Positions 5,381 through 16,380 of a stretch of 40,820 nt of DNA are shown in pieces. Where the stretch lies: IMG/VR virus record IMGVR_UViG_2917413769_000008, positions 1-40,820 of that record; one strand, written 5' to 3'. The notes under the pieces are model-generated. The model was not told where the DNA came from. It did not search any database and was given only the letters and a program-made list of their open reading frames with translations. Both the position numbers and the translations under genes were made by a program. How positions within the stretch are numbered: position 1 is the first letter of the stretch; each line of letters opens with the position of its first letter. This DNA comes from a virus. Lineage: Duplodnaviria; Heunggongvirae; Uroviricota; Caudoviricetes.

Positions 5381-5821
5381 CTAAAGAAAAAAGTACATTG
5401 ATAGCTTATAAAGTCCTGTTCCTGCAGCGATGATTGCTGGAACACCAAGCAATACCGCAAGCTTTGCGTCTGAAATCTTTCTATCGACAGCATCGATGGA
5501 TGGTTTTTTGGCTAGTGACTCTTTTATTGAATCGAGTCGCTCCAGAACAGCGATCATGTTTCTGTCGATAGATTTGACATCTGTCTTGAGCTCATCAACG
5601 TCACGTCGGATGTAGGACACATCAGACTCAAGCTTTGCAACTTTCGATTCAAGCACATTATTACTCCCAGAGCCACCGCTACCACTTGATTGTAGCATAG
5701 GTACATTACCGCCAGACATACCAGCTGATTGAGAAAATGCTGCGGTGTGCAAAGATGATGATCTTGCCGCTTGTTCAAGCTTTTCAGTTAGGTTTGGAGC
5801 TTCGTAATAACCGTGTTTCAT
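5381..5821 (-). CDS. Coiled-coil protein with Gly/Ser-rich N-terminal region and a single C-terminal transmembrane helix (146 aa); rexB-position cargo
   Basis: ATG ORF 8 nt after the upstream gene's stop; C-terminal LAVLLGVPAIIAAGTGLY hydrophobic segment; heptad-like LESKVAKLESDVSYIRRDVDELKTDVKSIDRNMIAVLERLDSIKESL region. Confidence 0.7.
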   Translation of the reverse strand: MKHGYYEAPNLTEKLEQAARSSSLHTAAFSQSAGMSGGNVPMLQSSGSGGSGSNNVLESKVAKLESDVSYIRRDVDELKTDVKSIDRNMIAVLERLDSIKESLAKKPSIDAVDRKISDAKLAVLLGVPAIIAAGTGLYKLSMYFFL

Positions 5822-5829
5822 TGTTAATA

Positions 5830-6099
5830 TTATGACTTATTGGTTTTAGCTCTATCATGCTGATCGCGAATAAAGTCAGCGAGTTTAAGCATTAAATCTT
5901 CCGTCATGCGAATTGTTGCAATGTTGTACTTTACGCTTTCAGTGTCATTACTACCATCAGCGTCCCATTCTGTAACATGCTGAAAGAAAGATATGGAGCC
6001 TAAGCGATCGTCATCTTCCCCAAAAGATGAATATCCAAATGCATCAGCATATGCATCTACACAGTTATTTGATTTTTTAATAAGTTTTTTATCACTCAT
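5830..6099 (-). CDS. Small acidic hypothetical protein (89 aa); rexA-position cargo
   Basis: Internal ATG at 6099 preceded by GGGAAAGG 6 nt upstream; AT-rich, unlike its neighbours; lies directly downstream of cI on the same strand. Confidence 0.65.
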   Translation of the reverse strand: MSDKKLIKKSNNCVDAYADAFGYSSFGEDDDRLGSISFFQHVTEWDADGSNDTESVKYNIATIRMTEDLMLKLADFIRDQHDRAKTNKS

Positions 6100-6179
6100 T
6101 TTTTGCCTTTCCCGTAATGTTATTTTTATAAAGAATTCTTTCAGCGCATTACCCAAAAGCCTCATCAGCACGCAGCTGA

Positions 6180-6869
6180 TTATCCGTGTTTCCTGTACGT
6201 CTGCGGCATGCTCCCAATAACCTTACCGAATATGAATACCCGATTCATCTCGTCTTTCTCGATCGGGTCCCACGGTGAGTAGCTCTTGTTATCAGAGATA
6301 ACCAGCAGCTTATCCTTCATCATTTGCAGGCGCTTTACATGGGCTGTGTCGTCGTACAGAAACGCATAGATGCCATCACCGTCGAAAGATTTAACAGTGA
6401 TATCAACGAACAGCAGGTCACCTGGTTCGATCGTCCCTGACATGCTGTCACCGCGCACGTTAATGATGCGGATATTTTCCGCCTTCCTGCCATCGAACAT
6501 GTGACGAGCATCGTCAAACGAGTACTCAACCGAGCGTAGAACTTCCACAAACTCACGGTTGATGACACCCGGTCCGGCACTGACTTCTATATCAAGAACG
6601 TCAATCTTGAAGTATTTTGAATGGCTGACAGTTGATTGTATTGGTTGCACGGTACTGTCTGACATATTTCCAACGCCAGAAGATAACCATTCTGCGCGCA
6701 CACCCAAAGCGTTTGCGATCTCCACGATTTTAGTTGTTTGGTTAGCTTTCCCTGTTTCGATTTTCTGAATGGCAGCCTGGCTAACCCCGACCATATCCCC
6801 AAGCGCCTTTTGTGTAAGGCCTCGCGCTAATCTGGCTTCTTTAAGTCTTTCTGAGAGTGTTGTTTTCAT
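6180..6869 (-). CDS. cI: Prophage repressor (cI-like): N-terminal HTH plus C-terminal LexA/S24-type autopeptidase domain
   Basis: Start taken as MKTTLSERLKEARLARGLTQKALGDMVGVSQAAIQKIE (HTH); C-terminal GDSM...K motifs of S24 peptidases; divergent from cro. Confidence 0.85.
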   Translation of the reverse strand: MKTTLSERLKEARLARGLTQKALGDMVGVSQAAIQKIETGKANQTTKIVEIANALGVRAEWLSSGVGNMSDSTVQPIQSTVSHSKYFKIDVLDIEVSAGPGVINREFVEVLRSVEYSFDDARHMFDGRKAENIRIINVRGDSMSGTIEPGDLLFVDITVKSFDGDGIYAFLYDDTAHVKRLQMMKDKLLVISDNKSYSPWDPIEKDEMNRVFIFGKVIGSMPQTYRKHG

Positions 6870-6973
6870 AGTCCAAATGTACAACCAAGGTTTTATTCCA
6901 TCAAACGAAAATGGTTGTTGACTAAAAACAACCATAGTTTTAATCTTGATTCAAATTAACCACGGAGGTTGTT
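6870..6973. promoter_or_regulatory. OR operator / divergent pRM-pR promoter region
   Basis: Palindrome GGTTGTTgactaaaAACAACC (6913..6933) and a wider ACAACCA...TGGTTGT repeat; pR TTGACT, 17 nt, TAATCT upstream of cro; a cI -10 (TACATT) only ~6 nt from the cI ATG suggests a leaderless cI mRNA. Confidence 0.6.
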
Positions 6974-10098: not shown

Positions 10099-10704
10099 AT
10101 GAGCACACAACTAGTCTTTCATCAAACAAAATTCCATCCTGTTAAACACAACAACAGTATCTGGCTTACTGCCGTTGAGATTGCTCAAGCTCTCGGATAT
10201 AAAAAATCTGATGCCGTAACTCAGATCTACGATCGAAATTCCGATGAATTTAGGGCAGATATGACTGAGACCCTCAATTTGAGTGTCTCAGGGAACTACC
10301 AGAAAACAATACGCATTTTCTCCCTCCGTGGTGCCCATTTGATCGCTATGTTCGCCCGCACTCCTGTAGCCAAAGAATTCCGCCGCTGGGTTCTGGATAT
10401 TCTCGATCGAGAAGTTCAACAATCCCCAATCACAAAACAATTCACTGATAACGAACTTTGCACACCCGCCTGGTTATGGCGAGCAGGGGATGTGATGTTA
10501 ACCGCCTGCCAGAATGTTACTCCACTTCTTCAGGTTGCGGAGCATCGCGAAGCCGGTCGCTTTACTTCTATTGAGCAAGAATATCCCCAGATACTACATA
10601 AGGCGCGCGAAATCCTTGCCAGAGAAACGGCACATGTAAGATTCCAGCCGTGGCAGGATGATAAGTGGAGCCGAGTATTGCCGCATTTGCGTTCTGAGCA
10701 GTAG
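10099..10704 (+). CDS. AntA/Bro-N-family antirepressor-like protein (Roi-like)
   Basis: 201-aa ORF with good RBS; N-terminal region resembles AntA/Bro-N antirepressor domains (family call from memory). Confidence 0.6.
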   Translation: MSTQLVFHQTKFHPVKHNNSIWLTAVEIAQALGYKKSDAVTQIYDRNSDEFRADMTETLNLSVSGNYQKTIRIFSLRGAHLIAMFARTPVAKEFRRWVLDILDREVQQSPITKQFTDNELCTPAWLWRAGDVMLTACQNVTPLLQVAEHREAGRFTSIEQEYPQILHKAREILARETAHVRFQPWQDDKWSRVLPHLRSEQ

Positions 10705-10883
10705 CAATAAAGTTTCCGGTGAGAAATGTCACCAGCATTTTGTTATGAAACGGGTATTGGCGGTATATGGGGGCGGGGCTTTAGTTATTAGGTGTCGAGA
10801 ATTAATTGTTTGTAGCAATATAAAAAGGAACGCTTAAGTTCGTTTATTTTTTAAGCTTCATATACATAGTGGATAAAAATGAG

Positions 10884-10910
10884 AACCACCCGCTGAACGG
10901 GTGGTTTTGC
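10884..10910. terminator. Hairpin terminator between the antirepressor-like gene and the antisense moron
   Basis: AACCACCCGctgaaCGGGTGGTT followed by TTTTG on the plus strand; lies at the 3' side of both convergent genes. Confidence 0.6.
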
Positions 10911-10982
10911 GCAAGTTAAATTTTATAATTTCAGTGAATCTTTACGCGGTAATAATGCAAATGATAGTTGAAAAAAGCACTA

Positions 10983-11660
10983 TCAGTCGATAGACTCACC
11001 GTAGGATGCAACTGCCTGAGCGCTGTATATAATAGAAGTATGCTGGGTATATCCAGTATCCATCAGACAAGAATAAGTATTATCATCTTTATTAAAAGCG
11101 TAAATGCTACAAACACCCTCAAGCTCACAACTTGTGTCCCATCCACTATTAGTTAACGTGCCCCACTCCTGGTAAAGTCCTGCGTTAACTTTTCGATTGA
11201 TATGATGCCATCCGCTATTTTCATCAATATAGTCACTATCGATATCATGTATTCTAGGAAATTCTCCGTTCATGTTTTCAATCCACGGTAAAATCTTTTT
11301 AACTGAGTTATAAGTTTCAATGCTGTATTTGAAAAAACGCTTCACGATAAAAATATAGATGCCGGCAGATTTATTCGTTGATTTATCAGTGGCGAAAATG
11401 ACAAAAATCTTCCCAACGCACTTTTCATCTACGCCCGGAAAAGTTACTGTGCCATCCTGGCTAACCGCCAGAACATTATTGTCTGCATTAGTGCCACAGG
11501 TCCATTTTACCTTGTCATTATTAATAGGGTCATTATCAATGACCATCTTGAAGGTTGCTCCTGGGAACAAACTGTTAGGGAAACAGTAACCACTCTCCAT
11601 ATCATTTTTAATATCATAGATATGGCTATCAACTAACACGCCTGTAATTTTGCTCATCAT
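10983..11660 (-). CDS. Moron: hypothetical 225-aa protein of unknown function, AT-rich, antisense to the nin operon
   Basis: First ATG at 11660 with a weak GAGAG RBS (the longer ORF begins with TTG); strongly AT-rich with a flanking AT-rich noncoding region; no recognised domain. Confidence 0.7.
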   Translation of the reverse strand: MMSKITGVLVDSHIYDIKNDMESGYCFPNSLFPGATFKMVIDNDPINNDKVKWTCGTNADNNVLAVSQDGTVTFPGVDEKCVGKIFVIFATDKSTNKSAGIYIFIVKRFFKYSIETYNSVKKILPWIENMNGEFPRIHDIDSDYIDENSGWHHINRKVNAGLYQEWGTLTNSGWDTSCELEGVCSIYAFNKDDNTYSCLMDTGYTQHTSIIYSAQAVASYGESID

Positions 11661-12171
11661 TGAACTCTCTTTGTTTGTTAAATAAAAAGTTTTATTCCTG
11701 AACAACGGAACACGCTGATATTAATGCAACCAATGAATTGTTGTTGTTATTTGGAGGTTATATAGTGGTATGAATGTTATTATACGATGTCTCTGAGTGA
11801 TGGGGTAAGGATTATATGATTCGCTTTTGAGATTTACCTATGTCAGGCGTTGCTGTTCATGTTCGTCCCCGTTGTCAGTCTTCTTAGTCTGAGCTAATGT
11901 GATCATCAATGGGTTATCAGTTTTCTCTGAAGTTATATAATTAATTGAGCGCCATAGCACCATGGGGCATTGTTGAATTTCATCTTCAATTGATTTTCCA
12001 TAATCAACTCGCCATAATCATGTCATCGGAGCCTGAACACCTCCGGTGACTTCTGCGCTAAACGGGGACGTTTATGCGCACACACAATCCAAACTCTCTT
12101 CTCCCTTCACAGATGCAGAAATGCACCTGCGATTTTTTGCATCCAACGTTTGACCTCTGCGGAGGTGAAGC

Positions 12172-12627
12172 GTGAACCTCCCACAAGACGGCATCAAATT
12201 GCATCGCGGTAACTTCACCGCTATCGGTCAGCAGATCCAGCCTTATCTGGAGGATGGAAAATGCTTTCGCATGGTGCTTAAACCGTGGCGGGAGAGACGC
12301 AGTCTTTCCCAGAATGCACTCAGCCACATGTGGTACAGCGAAATCAGTGAATACCTCATCAGCAGGGGGAAATCGTTCGCTACCGCAGCATGGGTAAAAG
12401 ATGCTCTCAAACACACATACCTCGGTTATGAAACCAAGGACCTGGTTGATGTCGTAACCGGCGAAATCACTACTATCCAGTCGTTACGCCATACCTCCGA
12501 TCTTGATACCGGAGAGATGTATGTCTTCCTGAGTAAGGTTGAATCTTGGGCGATGAGTATTGGCTGCCACCTGACTATTCCGCAGAGCTGCGAGTATCAG
12601 CTGCTGCGTGATAAGCAGGAGGCGTAA
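12172..12627 (+). CDS. ninB: NinB-family recombination protein
   Basis: 151 aa, GTG start after GGAGG; [13 protein letters not shown] resembles the NinB RSLDQN motif; position at the head of the nin operon. Confidence 0.7.
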
Positions 12628-13576: not shown

Positions 13577-13656
13577 AGCCAGAGATAACGATCGGTTGAT
13601 GCCGTTTTATTGTTTTTTGCTGCCAATTGGCGTGCTGGTGTAAATGGAGAACGAGA

Positions 13657-14409
13657 ATGAATCTTGAGGCCTTACCAAAATATTACTCCCCAAAATCTCC
13701 AAAATTGAGCGATGACGCACCGGCGACAGGCTCTGGCTGTTTAACGATTACGGATGTGATGGCTGCGCAGGGGATGGTGCAGTCGAAAGCACCGCTTGGG
13801 TTTGCCTTATTCCTGGCAAAAGTTGGTGTTCAGGACCCTCAGTTTGCAATTGAAGGTCTGCTCAATTACGCGATGGCACTGGATAACCCGACATTGAATA
13901 AATTGAGTGCAGAAACACGGTTACAGATTATTCCTTACCTCGTGAATTTTGCCTTTGCTGATTATTCCAGGTCTGCGGCAAGTAAGGCTCGCTGTGAGCA
14001 TTGTGCTGGTACGGGATTTCATAATGTATTGCGCGAAGTGGTGAAACATTCCAGAAGCGGGGAATCCGTTATCAAGGAAGAGTGGGTGAAGGAACTATGT
14101 CAGCATTGTCATGGTAAGGGAGAAGTCAGCACAGCGTGCAGAGGGTGTAAGGGTAAAGGTATTGTCCTGGATGAAAAAAGGACCCGGCTTCATGGCACGC
14201 CTGTTTATAAGATTTGTGGGCGTTGCAATGGAAACCGGTTTAGCCGTTTACCAACCACACTGGCGCGGCATCATGTCCAGAAACTGGTACCGGACCTGAC
14301 GGATTATCAGTGGTACAAGGGGTATGCTGATGTTATTGATAAACTGGTTACAAAGTGCTGGCAGGAAGAAGCATATGCAGAAGCACAGTTGAGAAAAGTG
14401 ACAAGATAA
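13657..14409 (+). CDS. Q: Late-gene antiterminator Q (QuuD / phage 21-82 type)
   Basis: 250 aa from MNLEALPKYY; Cys-rich zinc-binding region; sits directly upstream of a pR'-like promoter and tR'. Confidence 0.85.
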   Translation: MNLEALPKYYSPKSPKLSDDAPATGSGCLTITDVMAAQGMVQSKAPLGFALFLAKVGVQDPQFAIEGLLNYAMALDNPTLNKLSAETRLQIIPYLVNFAFADYSRSAASKARCEHCAGTGFHNVLREVVKHSRSGESVIKEEWVKELCQHCHGKGEVSTACRGCKGKGIVLDEKRTRLHGTPVYKICGRCNGNRFSRLPTTLARHHVQKLVPDLTDYQWYKGYADVIDKLVTKCWQEEAYAEAQLRKVTR

Positions 14410-14440
14410 ATAATTTTCGCCGAAGATATCGACATGATGC

Positions 14441-14475
14441 TTGCATTTTTTCAAAAAATATGGATAGGATTTTCT
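14441..14475 (+). promoter_or_regulatory. Late promoter pR' with qut-like region
   Basis: TTGCAT, ~17-18 nt, TAGGAT, followed by tttctcaacgatggg, which resembles the lambda pR' initial transcribed sequence. Confidence 0.6.
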
Positions 14476-14515
14476 CAACGATGGGCTTTGTATGTCCGGT
14501 GTTGAGAAAAAGTAG

Positions 14516-14547
14516 AAAACCCGCTAATGAGCGGGTTTTTGTGTTTT
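14516..14547 (+). terminator. tR' rho-independent terminator
   Basis: AAACCCGCtaatgaGCGGGTTT hairpin followed by TTGTGTTTT. Confidence 0.8.
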
Positions 14548-14778
14548 AAATGGGGAGGTGGCTGGATGTCTAAAATAAACATTGCTTCCAAGTGTACAAC
14601 TATGCGTTAATGGCTGCGTCGGTTTGAAGAACAGACGATATACGAAGTAGTTTACTAAAGCAGTTCTCATTTCAGGTGTTATTCACTTATTCCTTCTTTG
14701 AGTCTCTCCAATTAAGTACGAAGTCGTTTCTGTTATACAAATCATTTATGCCGAAAGGCTCAAGTTAAGGAATGTAGA

Positions 14779-14994
14779 ATGTCAAATAAAATGACTGGTT
14801 TAGTAAAATGGTTTAACGCTGATAAAGGTTTTGGCTTTATTTCTCCTGTTGATGGTAGTAAAGATGTGTTTGTGCATTTTTCTGCAATTCAGAATGATAA
14901 TTATCGAACCTTATTTGAAGGCCAAAAGGTTACCTTCTCTGTAGAGAGTGGTGCTAAAGGTCCTGCAGCAGCAAATGTCATTATTACTGATTAA
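14779..14994 (+). CDS. cspB: Cold-shock protein (CspA family), inserted between Q and the lysis genes
   Basis: 71 aa with [12 protein letters not shown] (RNP1) and VFVHFSAI (RNP2) motifs; long 5' leader; CspB rather than CspI is from memory. Confidence 0.8.
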
Positions 14995-15192
14995 AATTCA
15001 TAGCTTGTCTGTATACGATAACGAAGAAGGCTGATGCCTGAGTAGAGATGCAGATAGAGTTGTGGGTATTGAATCCCATTTTGTGGTGAAGTGCAGGTTT
15101 GCTGCATGAATAGTTTTACAGTAGAAGCTAACTGCTGGCATAGCAATACAAAGTGCGTAAGTGGGTAACTACCACAAAAAGCACCACAATCT

Positions 15193-15220
15193 CAAACCCG
15201 CGCAGGCGGGTTTTTTATTA
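15193..15220 (+). terminator. Rho-independent terminator downstream of cspB
   Basis: AAACCCGCgcagGCGGGTTT followed by TTTTATT. Confidence 0.7.
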
Positions 15221-15275
15221 TCTGATTTAAATATATTATTAAAATATAAAAACTCTTTGTAAGTAATCGAAACAC

Positions 15276-15446
15276 TCAGGCAACAGCTTTAAGATTTGTT
15301 TGGAATACTTTGTTGCAATGAGGGCAGATCAAAAGGGCACCTTTTTGTACTCTAGAAAAACTGTGTTCTGATTCTTGGGTACAGTTTGGGCAAGAACATT
15401 TTACGAGATAATTACGGCGTGATTTTGAGTCTTTACGTTCTGACAT
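15276..15446 (-). CDS. Candidate small zinc-ribbon protein (56 aa, MSERKDSKSRRNYLVKCSCPNCTQESEHSFSRVQKGALLICPHCNKVF...)
   Basis: ATG ORF not in the track (<60 aa); CxCPxC...CPHC pattern. Confidence 0.4.
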   Translation of the reverse strand: MSERKDSKSRRNYLVKCSCPNCTQESEHSFSRVQKGALLICPHCNKVFQTNLKAVA

Positions 15447-15667
15447 AGGCTTTTCCTGTATAAATGGCCGTATACATTACACTAAATAGAAAAATATATC
15501 CCGCATTATTATTTAATAGATGGTTTTTCTTTTAAAATATTTAACCACATTATTTTAATTTTCTGTTTTTTGAGCGTCGTTGAGAACAACGTTTGCTGTA
15601 AAAACTAACCCGTAGACTCCGATCTTTTCAAACATATTGCACCATCCGTGTACATCGGGGTGAGGAT

Positions 15668-15883
15668 ATGAAATCAATGGATAAGTTAACAACAGGTGTC
15701 GCCTATGGCACCTCTGCAGGCAGTGCTGGCTACTGGTTTTTACAGTTGCTCGATAAAGTCACGCCATCACAGTGGGCGGCAATAGGTGTGCTGGGTAGTC
15801 TGGTATTTGGCCTGCTGACGTACCTGACAAACCTTTATTTCAAGATTAAAGAAGATAAGCGTAAGGCTGCGAGAGGTGAATAA
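15668..15883 (+). CDS. S: Class II holin (phage 21 S-type pinholin)
   Basis: 71 aa with dual-start MKSM, two TM segments and a charged C-terminus; matches phage 21 S from memory. Confidence 0.9.
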
Positions 15884-16380
15884 TGTCGCCATCATTACGC
15901 AAGGCTGTTGCAGCTGCTATTGGTGGTGGGGCTGTTGCCATAGCGTCTGTGCTCATCACTGGTCCGAGTGGTGACGATGGTCTGGAAGGTGTCAGCTACA
16001 TACCATATAAAGATATCGTTGGCGTATGGACTGTATGTTACGGGCACACCGGAAAAGACATTATGCTCGGTAAAACGTATACCGAAGCAGAATGCAAAGC
16101 CCTCCTGAATAAAGACCTTGCCACTGTCGCCAGACAAATTAACCCGTACATCAAAGTCGATATACCGGAAACAACGCGCGGCGCTCTTTACTCGTTCGTC
16201 TATAACGTGGGCGCAGGCAATTTCAGAACATCTACTCTTCTTCGCAAAATAAACCAGGGCGATATCAAGGGCGCATGTGACCAGCTACGTCGCTGGACAT
16301 ACGCTGGCGGTAAGCAATGGAAAGGCCTGATGACTCGTCGTGAGATTGAGCGTGAGGTCTGTTTGTGGGGGCAGCAATGA
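15883..16380 (+). CDS. R: SAR endolysin (lysozyme, phage 21 R-type)
   Basis: 165 aa with an N-terminal hydrophobic signal-anchor-release segment; overlaps the holin stop. Confidence 0.9.

Follow-up and report, generated by a model that had tools for sequence, protein, structure and literature searches.

A leaderless protein with the predicted fold of the invasin/intimin tip is encoded in an AT-rich insert of a lambda-like prophage

Organization of the AT-rich insert

We analysed a 40,820-nucleotide stretch of DNA from a virus of the Caudoviricetes (IMG/VR record IMGVR_UViG_2917413769_000008, positions 1 to 40,820), referred to here as the window, and focused on an AT-rich insert at 10705..11989 that carries a single gene on the strand opposite to the delayed-early operon. 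Delimited by GC content and homology breaks, the insert extends from the stop codon of an ant gene to a backbone stretch with ylcH and ybcN, and its gene (10983..11660, minus strand) is a 225-codon open reading frame (ORF) for a leaderless protein of pI 4.8 that resembles domains D4 and D5 of invasin and their counterparts in intimin. GC content is 0.373 in the insert and 0.383 in the gene, against a window mean of 0.513; it stays at 0.34–0.39 over roughly 10750–11950 and at 0.49–0.57 in the flanks. Measured against 1285-nt segments (mean 0.514, standard deviation 0.061), the insert lies about 2.3 standard deviations low, and only one other stretch in the window, the gap between the Q gene and the lysis genes (~14200–15700), is as poor in GC. 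Both the ORF and its AT-rich setting had been proposed from a reading of the letters by themselves (the original prediction), and both are confirmed.

The right-hand boundary of the island had to be redrawn. It had been placed at the start of the downstream ninB gene; the left part (10705–11989) stands, whereas the last 182 bp (11990–12171, GC 0.484) belong to conserved lambdoid backbone of the phage-82/DLP12 type (11990..12175, plus strand, defined by homology to phage 82 and E. coli), homology to other phages restarting at 11990. This backbone is matched at 85–98% identity in phage 82, Turner, HK639 and the prophages of 2,852 of 5,426 complete E. coli genomes, and in the phage 82 record X92588 it bears annotations for orf33, a putative promoter and a repeat that may bind a regulator. 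The insert-specific noncoding DNA upstream of the gene therefore shrinks from the ~500 bp first described to 329 bp, and no more than the ~140 bp nearest the gene accompany it in other genomic contexts. The upstream flank is the antirepressor-like gene expected (10099..10704, plus strand; Ant type, with Bro-N and P22_AR_C domain matches). Downstream, assignment to the NinB family holds, with the refinement that the 151-aa protein (12172..12627, plus strand; PHROG 72, E = 7.5e-51; orf151 of phage 82) is specifically of the YbcN type, its homologue in E. coli being annotated as YbcN. The intervening orf33 (12074–12175, plus strand), equated with ylcH by translation and E. coli annotation, overlaps the GTG start of the ybcN-type gene.

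The gene of the insert begins with ATGATG, of which only the second ATG (11657) is kept in all homologues, and a Shine-Dalgarno-like AGAGAG motif (11665–11670) sits 5–10 nt upstream of the start. Starting instead from a TTG at 11705 would extend the protein by only 15 non-hydrophobic residues, and the frame is closed by a stop 20 codons above the start (15 above the alternative TTG start). Beyond the 3′ end of the gene, folding identifies an intrinsic terminator (10874..10906, minus strand) with a 10-bp G+C-rich stem, a 3-nt loop and a T-run; the hairpin noted from the letters is thus real (stem 10884–10906, −16.5 kcal/mol, z = −4.1), and none of 200 shuffled sequences folded equally well. Because the plus strand also reads TTTT after this stem, the terminator may act on rightward transcripts too. 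Upstream of the gene, alignment of prophage, remnant and other loci delimits a conserved 5′ region of ~140 nt (11661..11798, minus strand) with two candidate −10 elements: TATAAT (11779–11784), which reads CATAAT in most prophage alleles, and TATATAAC (11757–11764), which is invariant.

Terminator, gene and 5′ region together make up a unit (10804–11798) that is conserved across genomic contexts; homology to chromosomal and other loci stops at 11798, and the remainder of the noncoding DNA (11799..11989) is an insert-specific spacer that, by sequence comparison, is common only to sister prophages. Deviant composition, opposite orientation, a terminator of its own and a 5′ region that accompanies the gene from one context to another give the insert the moron architecture originally ascribed to it, and we consider it very probably a self-contained moron in a lambda-like prophage of a cryptic Escherichia lineage. 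That architecture is ordinary for a moron; its cargo is unusual. Neither megablast nor sensitive blastn found a DNA match to the insert in 50,697 phage records or the 5,426 complete E. coli genomes, tblastn found no match to the protein in phage or plasmid collections, and Rfam returned none within 10500–12400. The window holds no second copy of the gene according to tblastn and hidden Markov model (HMM) searches of six-frame ORFs.

Identity and fold of the moron protein

The protein had been described as devoid of any recognisable motif, a claim that did not survive remote-homology and structure searches, which recovered a stand-alone invasin/intimin D4-D5 module. The only Pfam match of the 225-aa sequence, Invasin_D4 (PF21764), scores 16.6 bits (E = 0.012), below the gathering threshold of 27 bits; the family profile matches the D4 sequence of invasin at E = 7.3e-7, and precomputed Pfam matches exist for most homologues. 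An AlphaFold2 model based on 21 homologues (mean predicted local distance difference test score, pLDDT, 91.4; predicted template-modelling score, pTM, 0.88) consists of a β-sandwich from residue 1 to ~116 followed by an α/β domain. Foldseek comparison with the Protein Data Bank (PDB) retrieved invasin (1CWV; E = 4.7e-12, template-modelling (TM) score 0.66 over 230 columns) and intimin (1F00; E = 1.2e-6), the only solved two-domain structures that share the fold. Viral folds in BFVD gave generic immunoglobulin (Ig)-domain matches only (BIG2, Hoc-like), all at low TM scores, and the two-domain fold is thus not shared by any phage structural protein there; PHROGs, NCBIfam and PADLOC gave no match. 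The moron protein is almost certainly a free-standing invasin D4-D5 superdomain, equivalent to the Ig-like and lectin-like domains of intimin.

Profile comparison and substitution ratios assign codons 1–116 (11313..11660, minus strand) to an Ig-like domain homologous to invasin D4, which forms the conserved scaffold, and alignment and an entropy map assign codons 117–225 (10986..11312, minus strand) to a C-type-lectin-like domain equivalent to invasin D5 and intimin D3. In an alignment of 21 sequences the lectin half keeps an invariant core (R156, N159, GLYQEWG at 161–167, GW at 173–174, QAVA at 215–218 and Y220), and the family is acidic, with pI values of 4.4–5.0. The invasin/intimin tip is known from textbooks as a module that binds receptors outside the cell: invasin binds β1 integrins, and intimin binds translocated Tir.

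Unequal variation of the two domains

The two halves of the protein differ sharply in how they vary. Ratios of nonsynonymous to synonymous substitution (dN/dS, ω), estimated pairwise by the Nei-Gojobori method, are 0.11–0.32 in the N-terminal domain and 0.7–1.25 in the C-terminal domain, and for the more diverged pairs Fisher tests of heterogeneity between domains gave p values of 9e-4 to 3e-6. The 21-sequence alignment shows an N-terminal half that is almost invariant and a C-terminal half made of the core motifs plus patches that differ in nearly every sequence; these hypervariable patches fall at residues ~136–160, 166–190 and 196–220, where sliding windows give pN/pS (the ratio of nonsynonymous to synonymous differences per site) of 1.0–1.3. 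The Ig-like half is under purifying selection.

Comparison with close relatives localises this divergence within otherwise near-identical DNA. Against the sister prophages L021, L003 and L025, the window shows 0–1 differences per 100 nt in ant, the N-domain, the 5′ region and the backbone, and 25–28 per 100 nt at 11000–11099 and 11200–11299. Summed over longer stretches, this amounts to ~61 differences in the 348-nt C-domain segment, ~10 in ~980 nt of left flank and ~3 in ~1,070 nt comprising the N-domain and right flank; against another relative (L020a) there are none in the first 110 codons and 41 in the last 115. Synonymous sites have diverged in the same segment (dS 0.12–0.25, against 0–0.05 in the N-domain), which argues that C-domain segments were imported by recombination rather than altered in place by point mutation. 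The loops of the lectin half are probably a hypervariable binding surface, and their variation suggests a binding module engaged in an arms race.

Absence of export features

The protein has no signal peptide, lipobox or transmembrane (TM) segment, as originally predicted for the signal peptide and TM segment; the highest 19-residue Kyte-Doolittle mean is 1.08. Its N-terminus, MMSKITGVLVD, is instead structured in the model (pLDDT 92) and supplies the first β-strand of the Ig fold, at residues 5–10. Pfam detects neither the inverse-autotransporter (IAT) β-barrel (PF11924), nor LysM, nor the Big_1/Invasin_D3 stalk in the 225 residues, domains that the remote full-length relatives P0039 and P0043 do carry. 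In an alignment of 11 sequences, both canonical cysteines of the lectin domain are present in all seven exported or fragment relatives, including C907 of invasin, and absent from all four leaderless representatives. Other cysteines number 2 to 8 per protein and lie in variable loops. The positions of the integrin-binding residues D911 and D811 of invasin align with Asn131 and Gly24, the alignment being approximate in these loops. Having lost signal peptide, LysM, β-barrel, stalk and lectin disulfide, the protein most likely works in the cytoplasm, and since most features that define inverse autotransporters are missing, it does not belong to that family, though the fold is theirs.

Two routes out of the cell were considered. 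A type III secretion effector of prophage exchangeable effector loci, which would have a disordered N-terminal signal and occur in LEE-positive E. coli, appears unlikely from the structured N-terminus and the lack of any match in the 5,426 complete E. coli genomes. The presence of adhesin-like genes near two copies raised the idea of a tip split off from an adhesin and docking onto an exported stalk, which we rejected as unlikely given that the protein has no export signal and that the adhesin-like neighbour at one of these loci has a Cys-containing C-terminal domain of its own. That neighbour (L037:2298–4253, minus strand) is a 651-aa signal-peptide protein with Invasin_D3/Big_1 Ig-like repeats, transcribed divergently from P0036, a distant leaderless relative; at the other locus (L008) a 2,639-aa inverse autotransporter gene lies ~6 kb from the tip-gene copy. 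A further relative, P0031 (442 aa), from the search of representative proteins, combines a signal peptide with a tandem pair of D4-D5 units, each of which keeps both disulfide cysteines, so the superdomain also exists in a secreted, barrel-less tandem form.

Distribution and genomic settings

The family is very rare. It comprises 24 clusters among 5.8 billion proteins, all from Escherichia, with 8 loci in 185,579 species genomes, 14 in IMG/VR and 5 in 241 million metagenome records. Among 1.84 billion representative proteins, a profile search returned only four close clusters. More distant matches were the C-terminal ends of 900–3,100-aa proteins (those tested carry IAT_beta, LysM, Big_1, Invasin_D3 and Invasin_D4), together with a few signal-peptide proteins and a few other leaderless proteins of ~220 aa. 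Down to 44% identity, more than 20 clusters keep an ORF of 218–233 aa with the same start, ribosome-binding site (RBS), 5′ region and terminator.

The conserved unit occurs in three settings: the lambdoid prophage slot, chromosomal prophage remnants and an unrelated toxin-antitoxin-rich island. The island was sought at the same position in other prophages, as the original prediction had proposed, and it was found there: other unclassified Escherichia strains have lambdoid prophages with the unit between ant and orf33-ybcN. These prophages differ in their replication modules, which are of the DnaB type in L003 and of the O/P type in L004 and the window. Two prophages on IMG/VR contigs (L019 and L020) carry tandem ant-plus-gene cassettes with different C-terminal alleles; there the promoter-distal ant is truncated (147 aa) and diverged over its N-terminal 400 nt, and the two tip genes differ almost solely in their C-domains. 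Paralogues at 43–45% identity lie near xis/int in prophages that also hold a nin-region copy, in some cases two tandem alleles, and the maximum per genome is four loci, in E1V33. Among the remnants, E. ruysiae and other Escherichia have the gene between ybcH-nfrAB and emrE-folD-cysS; there it abuts a ninE fragment and, in L007, also the 3′ end of ant. This locus is a decayed prophage at the DLP12 position in which the gene is still intact. The E. whittamii copy adjoins fliE-fliF in a flagellar-region remnant, and the copy in an E. coli draft genome lies in an island with TacAT, HipBA, Fic/Phd and an omptin gene.

Upstream of ylcH-ybcN, the cargo in HK639, Turner and E. coli prophages is unrelated to the moron, and DLP12 of strain K-12 has emrE-ybcKLM in this slot. 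Genes for emrE-type small multidrug transporters lie 0.4–4.5 kb from the tip gene at three chromosomal loci (L001, L007 and L012) and at the metagenomic locus L037, where the transporter gene adjoins P0036 (E = 6e-9). Their presence near tip genes and in the K-12 slot suggests one long-lived cargo hotspot.

Proposed function and alternative explanations

In the mechanism we propose, the moron would be a unit of one gene, a ~140-nt 5′ region with translation signals and a probable promoter, and a strong terminator, transcribed against the delayed-early (PR) operon. The Ig-like half would act as a conserved scaffold and the lectin-like loops as a recognition surface, which recombination would reassort between otherwise near-identical prophages. 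Made in the lysogen, the protein would bind a fast-evolving protein stoichiometrically, given that it has no enzymatic domain and no partner gene. The most plausible target would be a protein of a superinfecting or competing phage, which would make the moron product a Tab-like exclusion or assembly-blocking factor, and during the prophage's own lytic cycle, N-antiterminated transcription running rightward across the cassette would work against its expression. Expression in the lysogen and an anti-phage role are suggested by the moron architecture and by the precedent of Tab (PMC10884400) and Tai (PMC11364771), single prophage proteins that bind phage structural proteins. The explanation as a whole, anti-phage step included, is tentative, and a phage target taken by itself we rate as somewhat unlikely. 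Also unlikely is a reading in which an adhesin tip, in the lambdoid prophages of non-coli Escherichia, has become a recognition module that works like an antibody within the cell, with the Ig-like domain as its fixed scaffold and lectin-like loops swapped by recombination to track a rapidly changing target such as a rival phage's protein; in this antibody-like reading, tandem copies, the second site near int and domesticated chromosomal copies would constitute the allele repertoire of the module.

Several observations weigh against the proposed function. The ω of the C-domain is not significantly above 1 (binomial p = 0.4–0.7), so that our claim is one of heterogeneity and localised mosaic divergence, not of proven positive selection, and relaxed constraint on loops combined with recombination could produce much of the variation pattern. 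The original prediction had named disruption of the ORF in close relatives that retain the island as evidence against it, and here the outcome is divided: truncated or frameshifted copies occur (L013, L017, L018, P0017, P0022 and P0024), and most copies are intact, with lengths of 222–233 aa. PADLOC-DB v2 gave no match for the protein or for the neighbours at paralogous loci, and at nine other loci Pfam and PADLOC revealed no recurrent partner or defence gene, the neighbours being generic prophage, integrase, insertion sequence (IS), toxin-antitoxin and adhesin genes. A consensus scan found no sigma-70 site matching at 9 or more of 12 positions on the minus strand of the 5′ region, and no convincing −35 element; with TATAAT-like elements only, a promoter of the gene's own in that region is plausible and undemonstrated. 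Finally, to our knowledge every protein with this superdomain that has been characterised acts outside the cell, on a eukaryotic receptor.

This last point leads to the first alternative, in which the tip is released by lysis or unrecognised export and binds an animal receptor, with host polymorphism or immunity driving its variation. Invasin and intimin being the only solved structures of the fold is in keeping with such a factor, as are the AT-rich prophage cargo, a trait of many virulence morons, and the C-terminal domain of intimin, which is likewise the allelic, variable part of that protein. Set against these are the missing signal peptide and TM segment together with a structured Ig β-strand at residues 5–10, the loss of both disulfide cysteines kept in every exported relative compared, and the Asn131 and Gly24 at the approximately aligned positions of D911 and D811. 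Nor does the gene occur in any of the 5,426 complete E. coli genomes, a set in which the well-sequenced pathotypes should be represented, and we regard a eukaryotic-host factor as improbable.

We judge just as improbable a factor that benefits the phage, which would bind a variable host protein in counter-defence or host takeover and so aid replication or lysogeny. A small, acidic protein with a hypervariable surface and no enzymatic domain recalls many anti-defence proteins, and the gene lies among early genes, adjoins ant and is duplicated with it. Yet it is transcribed against the early operon and ends at its own terminator, and intact copies persist in remnants that have no phage functions and in non-phage islands, an indication that the cell gains from it more than a replicating phage would.

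In another reading, which we hold to be quite improbable, the protein would be an orphan immunity-like protein that neutralises a competitor's polymorphic toxin or bacteriocin and diversifies in response to it. The protein is small and cytoplasmic by prediction, its alleles are hypervariable, several paralogues may share a genome, and one copy sits in the toxin-antitoxin-rich island; however, no toxin gene adjoins it at any locus examined, and we know of no report of this fold among immunity proteins.

Nor is the gene readily seen as a functionless fragment of an inverse autotransporter, captured and drifting. The C-domain ω near 1, the several truncated or frameshifted copies and the rarity of the family are what drift would leave, but the low N-domain ω, the invariant core motifs of the C-domain and the retention of ORF, start, RBS, 5′ region and terminator in more than 20 clusters are not, and neutral drift cannot produce divergence in two patches within near-identical DNA. 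We consider this very improbable. Targeted hypermutation of the lectin-like domain by a diversity-generating retroelement (DGR), as in Mtd of Bordetella phage, is scarcely credible, and as far as this window goes it is largely refuted. The classic variable scaffold of such systems is a C-type-lectin fold (PMC10743442), and variation is sharply confined to the 3′ half of the gene, but the variation lies in two patches over ~350 nt, its ratio of synonymous to nonsynonymous changes equals the neutral expectation instead of being almost purely nonsynonymous, and the 40.8-kb window holds no template-repeat copy of the variable region (a reverse transcriptase was not sought beyond the survey of window ORFs).

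Comparison with known systems

Relative to D4-D5 of Yersinia pseudotuberculosis invasin (1CWV), the moron protein dispenses with signal peptide, LysM, β-barrel and the D1–D3 stalk, lacks the C907–C982 disulfide, has Asn and Gly at the D911 and D811 positions and contains a conserved acidic insertion of six residues (DIKNDM) in its Ig-like domain; its gene is a prophage moron, whereas invasin is encoded by a chromosomal adhesin gene. Intimin (1F00/1F02) is an outer-membrane protein, unlike the leaderless moron product. With the lambdoid morons bor and lom of lambda and gp15 of HK97, the insert shares the plan of an independent unit of deviant composition between conserved genes, with a gene, a terminator and probably a promoter of its own, in a slot that holds different cargo in different phages. 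Those morons encode membrane proteins or lipoproteins of other folds (reviewed in PMC3594210), whereas this one encodes an adhesin-tip module, and we found no moron with such a module in the literature. Literature searches on the Pfam family, on leaderless invasin-like prophage proteins and on defence hotspots in the nin region likewise turned up nothing on this family.

Tab and Tai are single non-enzymatic prophage proteins that the lysogen expresses and that block the assembly of invading phages; the likeness to them would be functional only, and there is no sequence or structural relationship. With the DGR-diversified proteins Mtd, TvpA and tentaclins (PMC10743442) the moron protein shares a C-type-lectin scaffold that tolerates massive loop variation, the difference being that here the variation appears to arise from ordinary divergence and recombination, with no template repeat in the window.

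A leaderless, disulfide-free and hypervariable tip carried as a prophage moron would show the invasin/intimin fold re-used inside the bacterial cell, probably in mobile-element conflict; if the antibody-like reading is correct, it would amount to a kind of immunity not described before, in which one protein with the fold of a virulence adhesin acts by binding only. The 225-aa protein also offers a natural scaffold with one fixed half and one highly mutable binding half, and since natural alleles exist in near-isogenic prophages, swaps of specificity would be directly testable. The slot upstream of ylcH-ybcN is a cargo hotspot worth mining.

Other features of the window

Two promoter-like sites on the plus strand face ylcH-ybcN-ninE-rusA-Q. 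One is a consensus-scan match inside the insert spacer (TTATCA-16-TATAAT, 11914–11941), and the other (11990–12018) is the putative backbone promoter known from the phage 82 annotation, with its −35 at 11990–11995 and −10 at 12013–12018. If active, they could allow the nin-region genes to be transcribed independently of PR. Directly after the ant stop codon, the consensus scan alone marks a small hairpin followed by a T-rich tract (10716..10735, plus strand), a possible nin-region terminator of rightward transcripts.

Elsewhere, a second AT-rich island (14200–15700, GC ~0.36) separates the Q gene (13627–14409) from the holin/lysozyme genes (15668–16380), in the slot that holds stx in Stx phages. 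It contains a 71-aa CspA-type cold-shock gene (14779–14994, plus strand) and a 56-aa Cys-rich YnfU-like ORF (15276–15446, minus strand). Directly downstream of the cI-like repressor gene (6180–6935, minus strand), at the position of lambda rexAB, lie two further ORFs of GC ~0.40 (5381–6171, minus strand) that are candidates for exclusion genes expressed in the lysogen. One encodes 113 aa; the other encodes 146 aa, its middle part resembling a coiled coil and its C-terminus containing a hydrophobic segment. The sister prophage L004 has different genes (DUF6932 and one of 310 aa) at the equivalent position.

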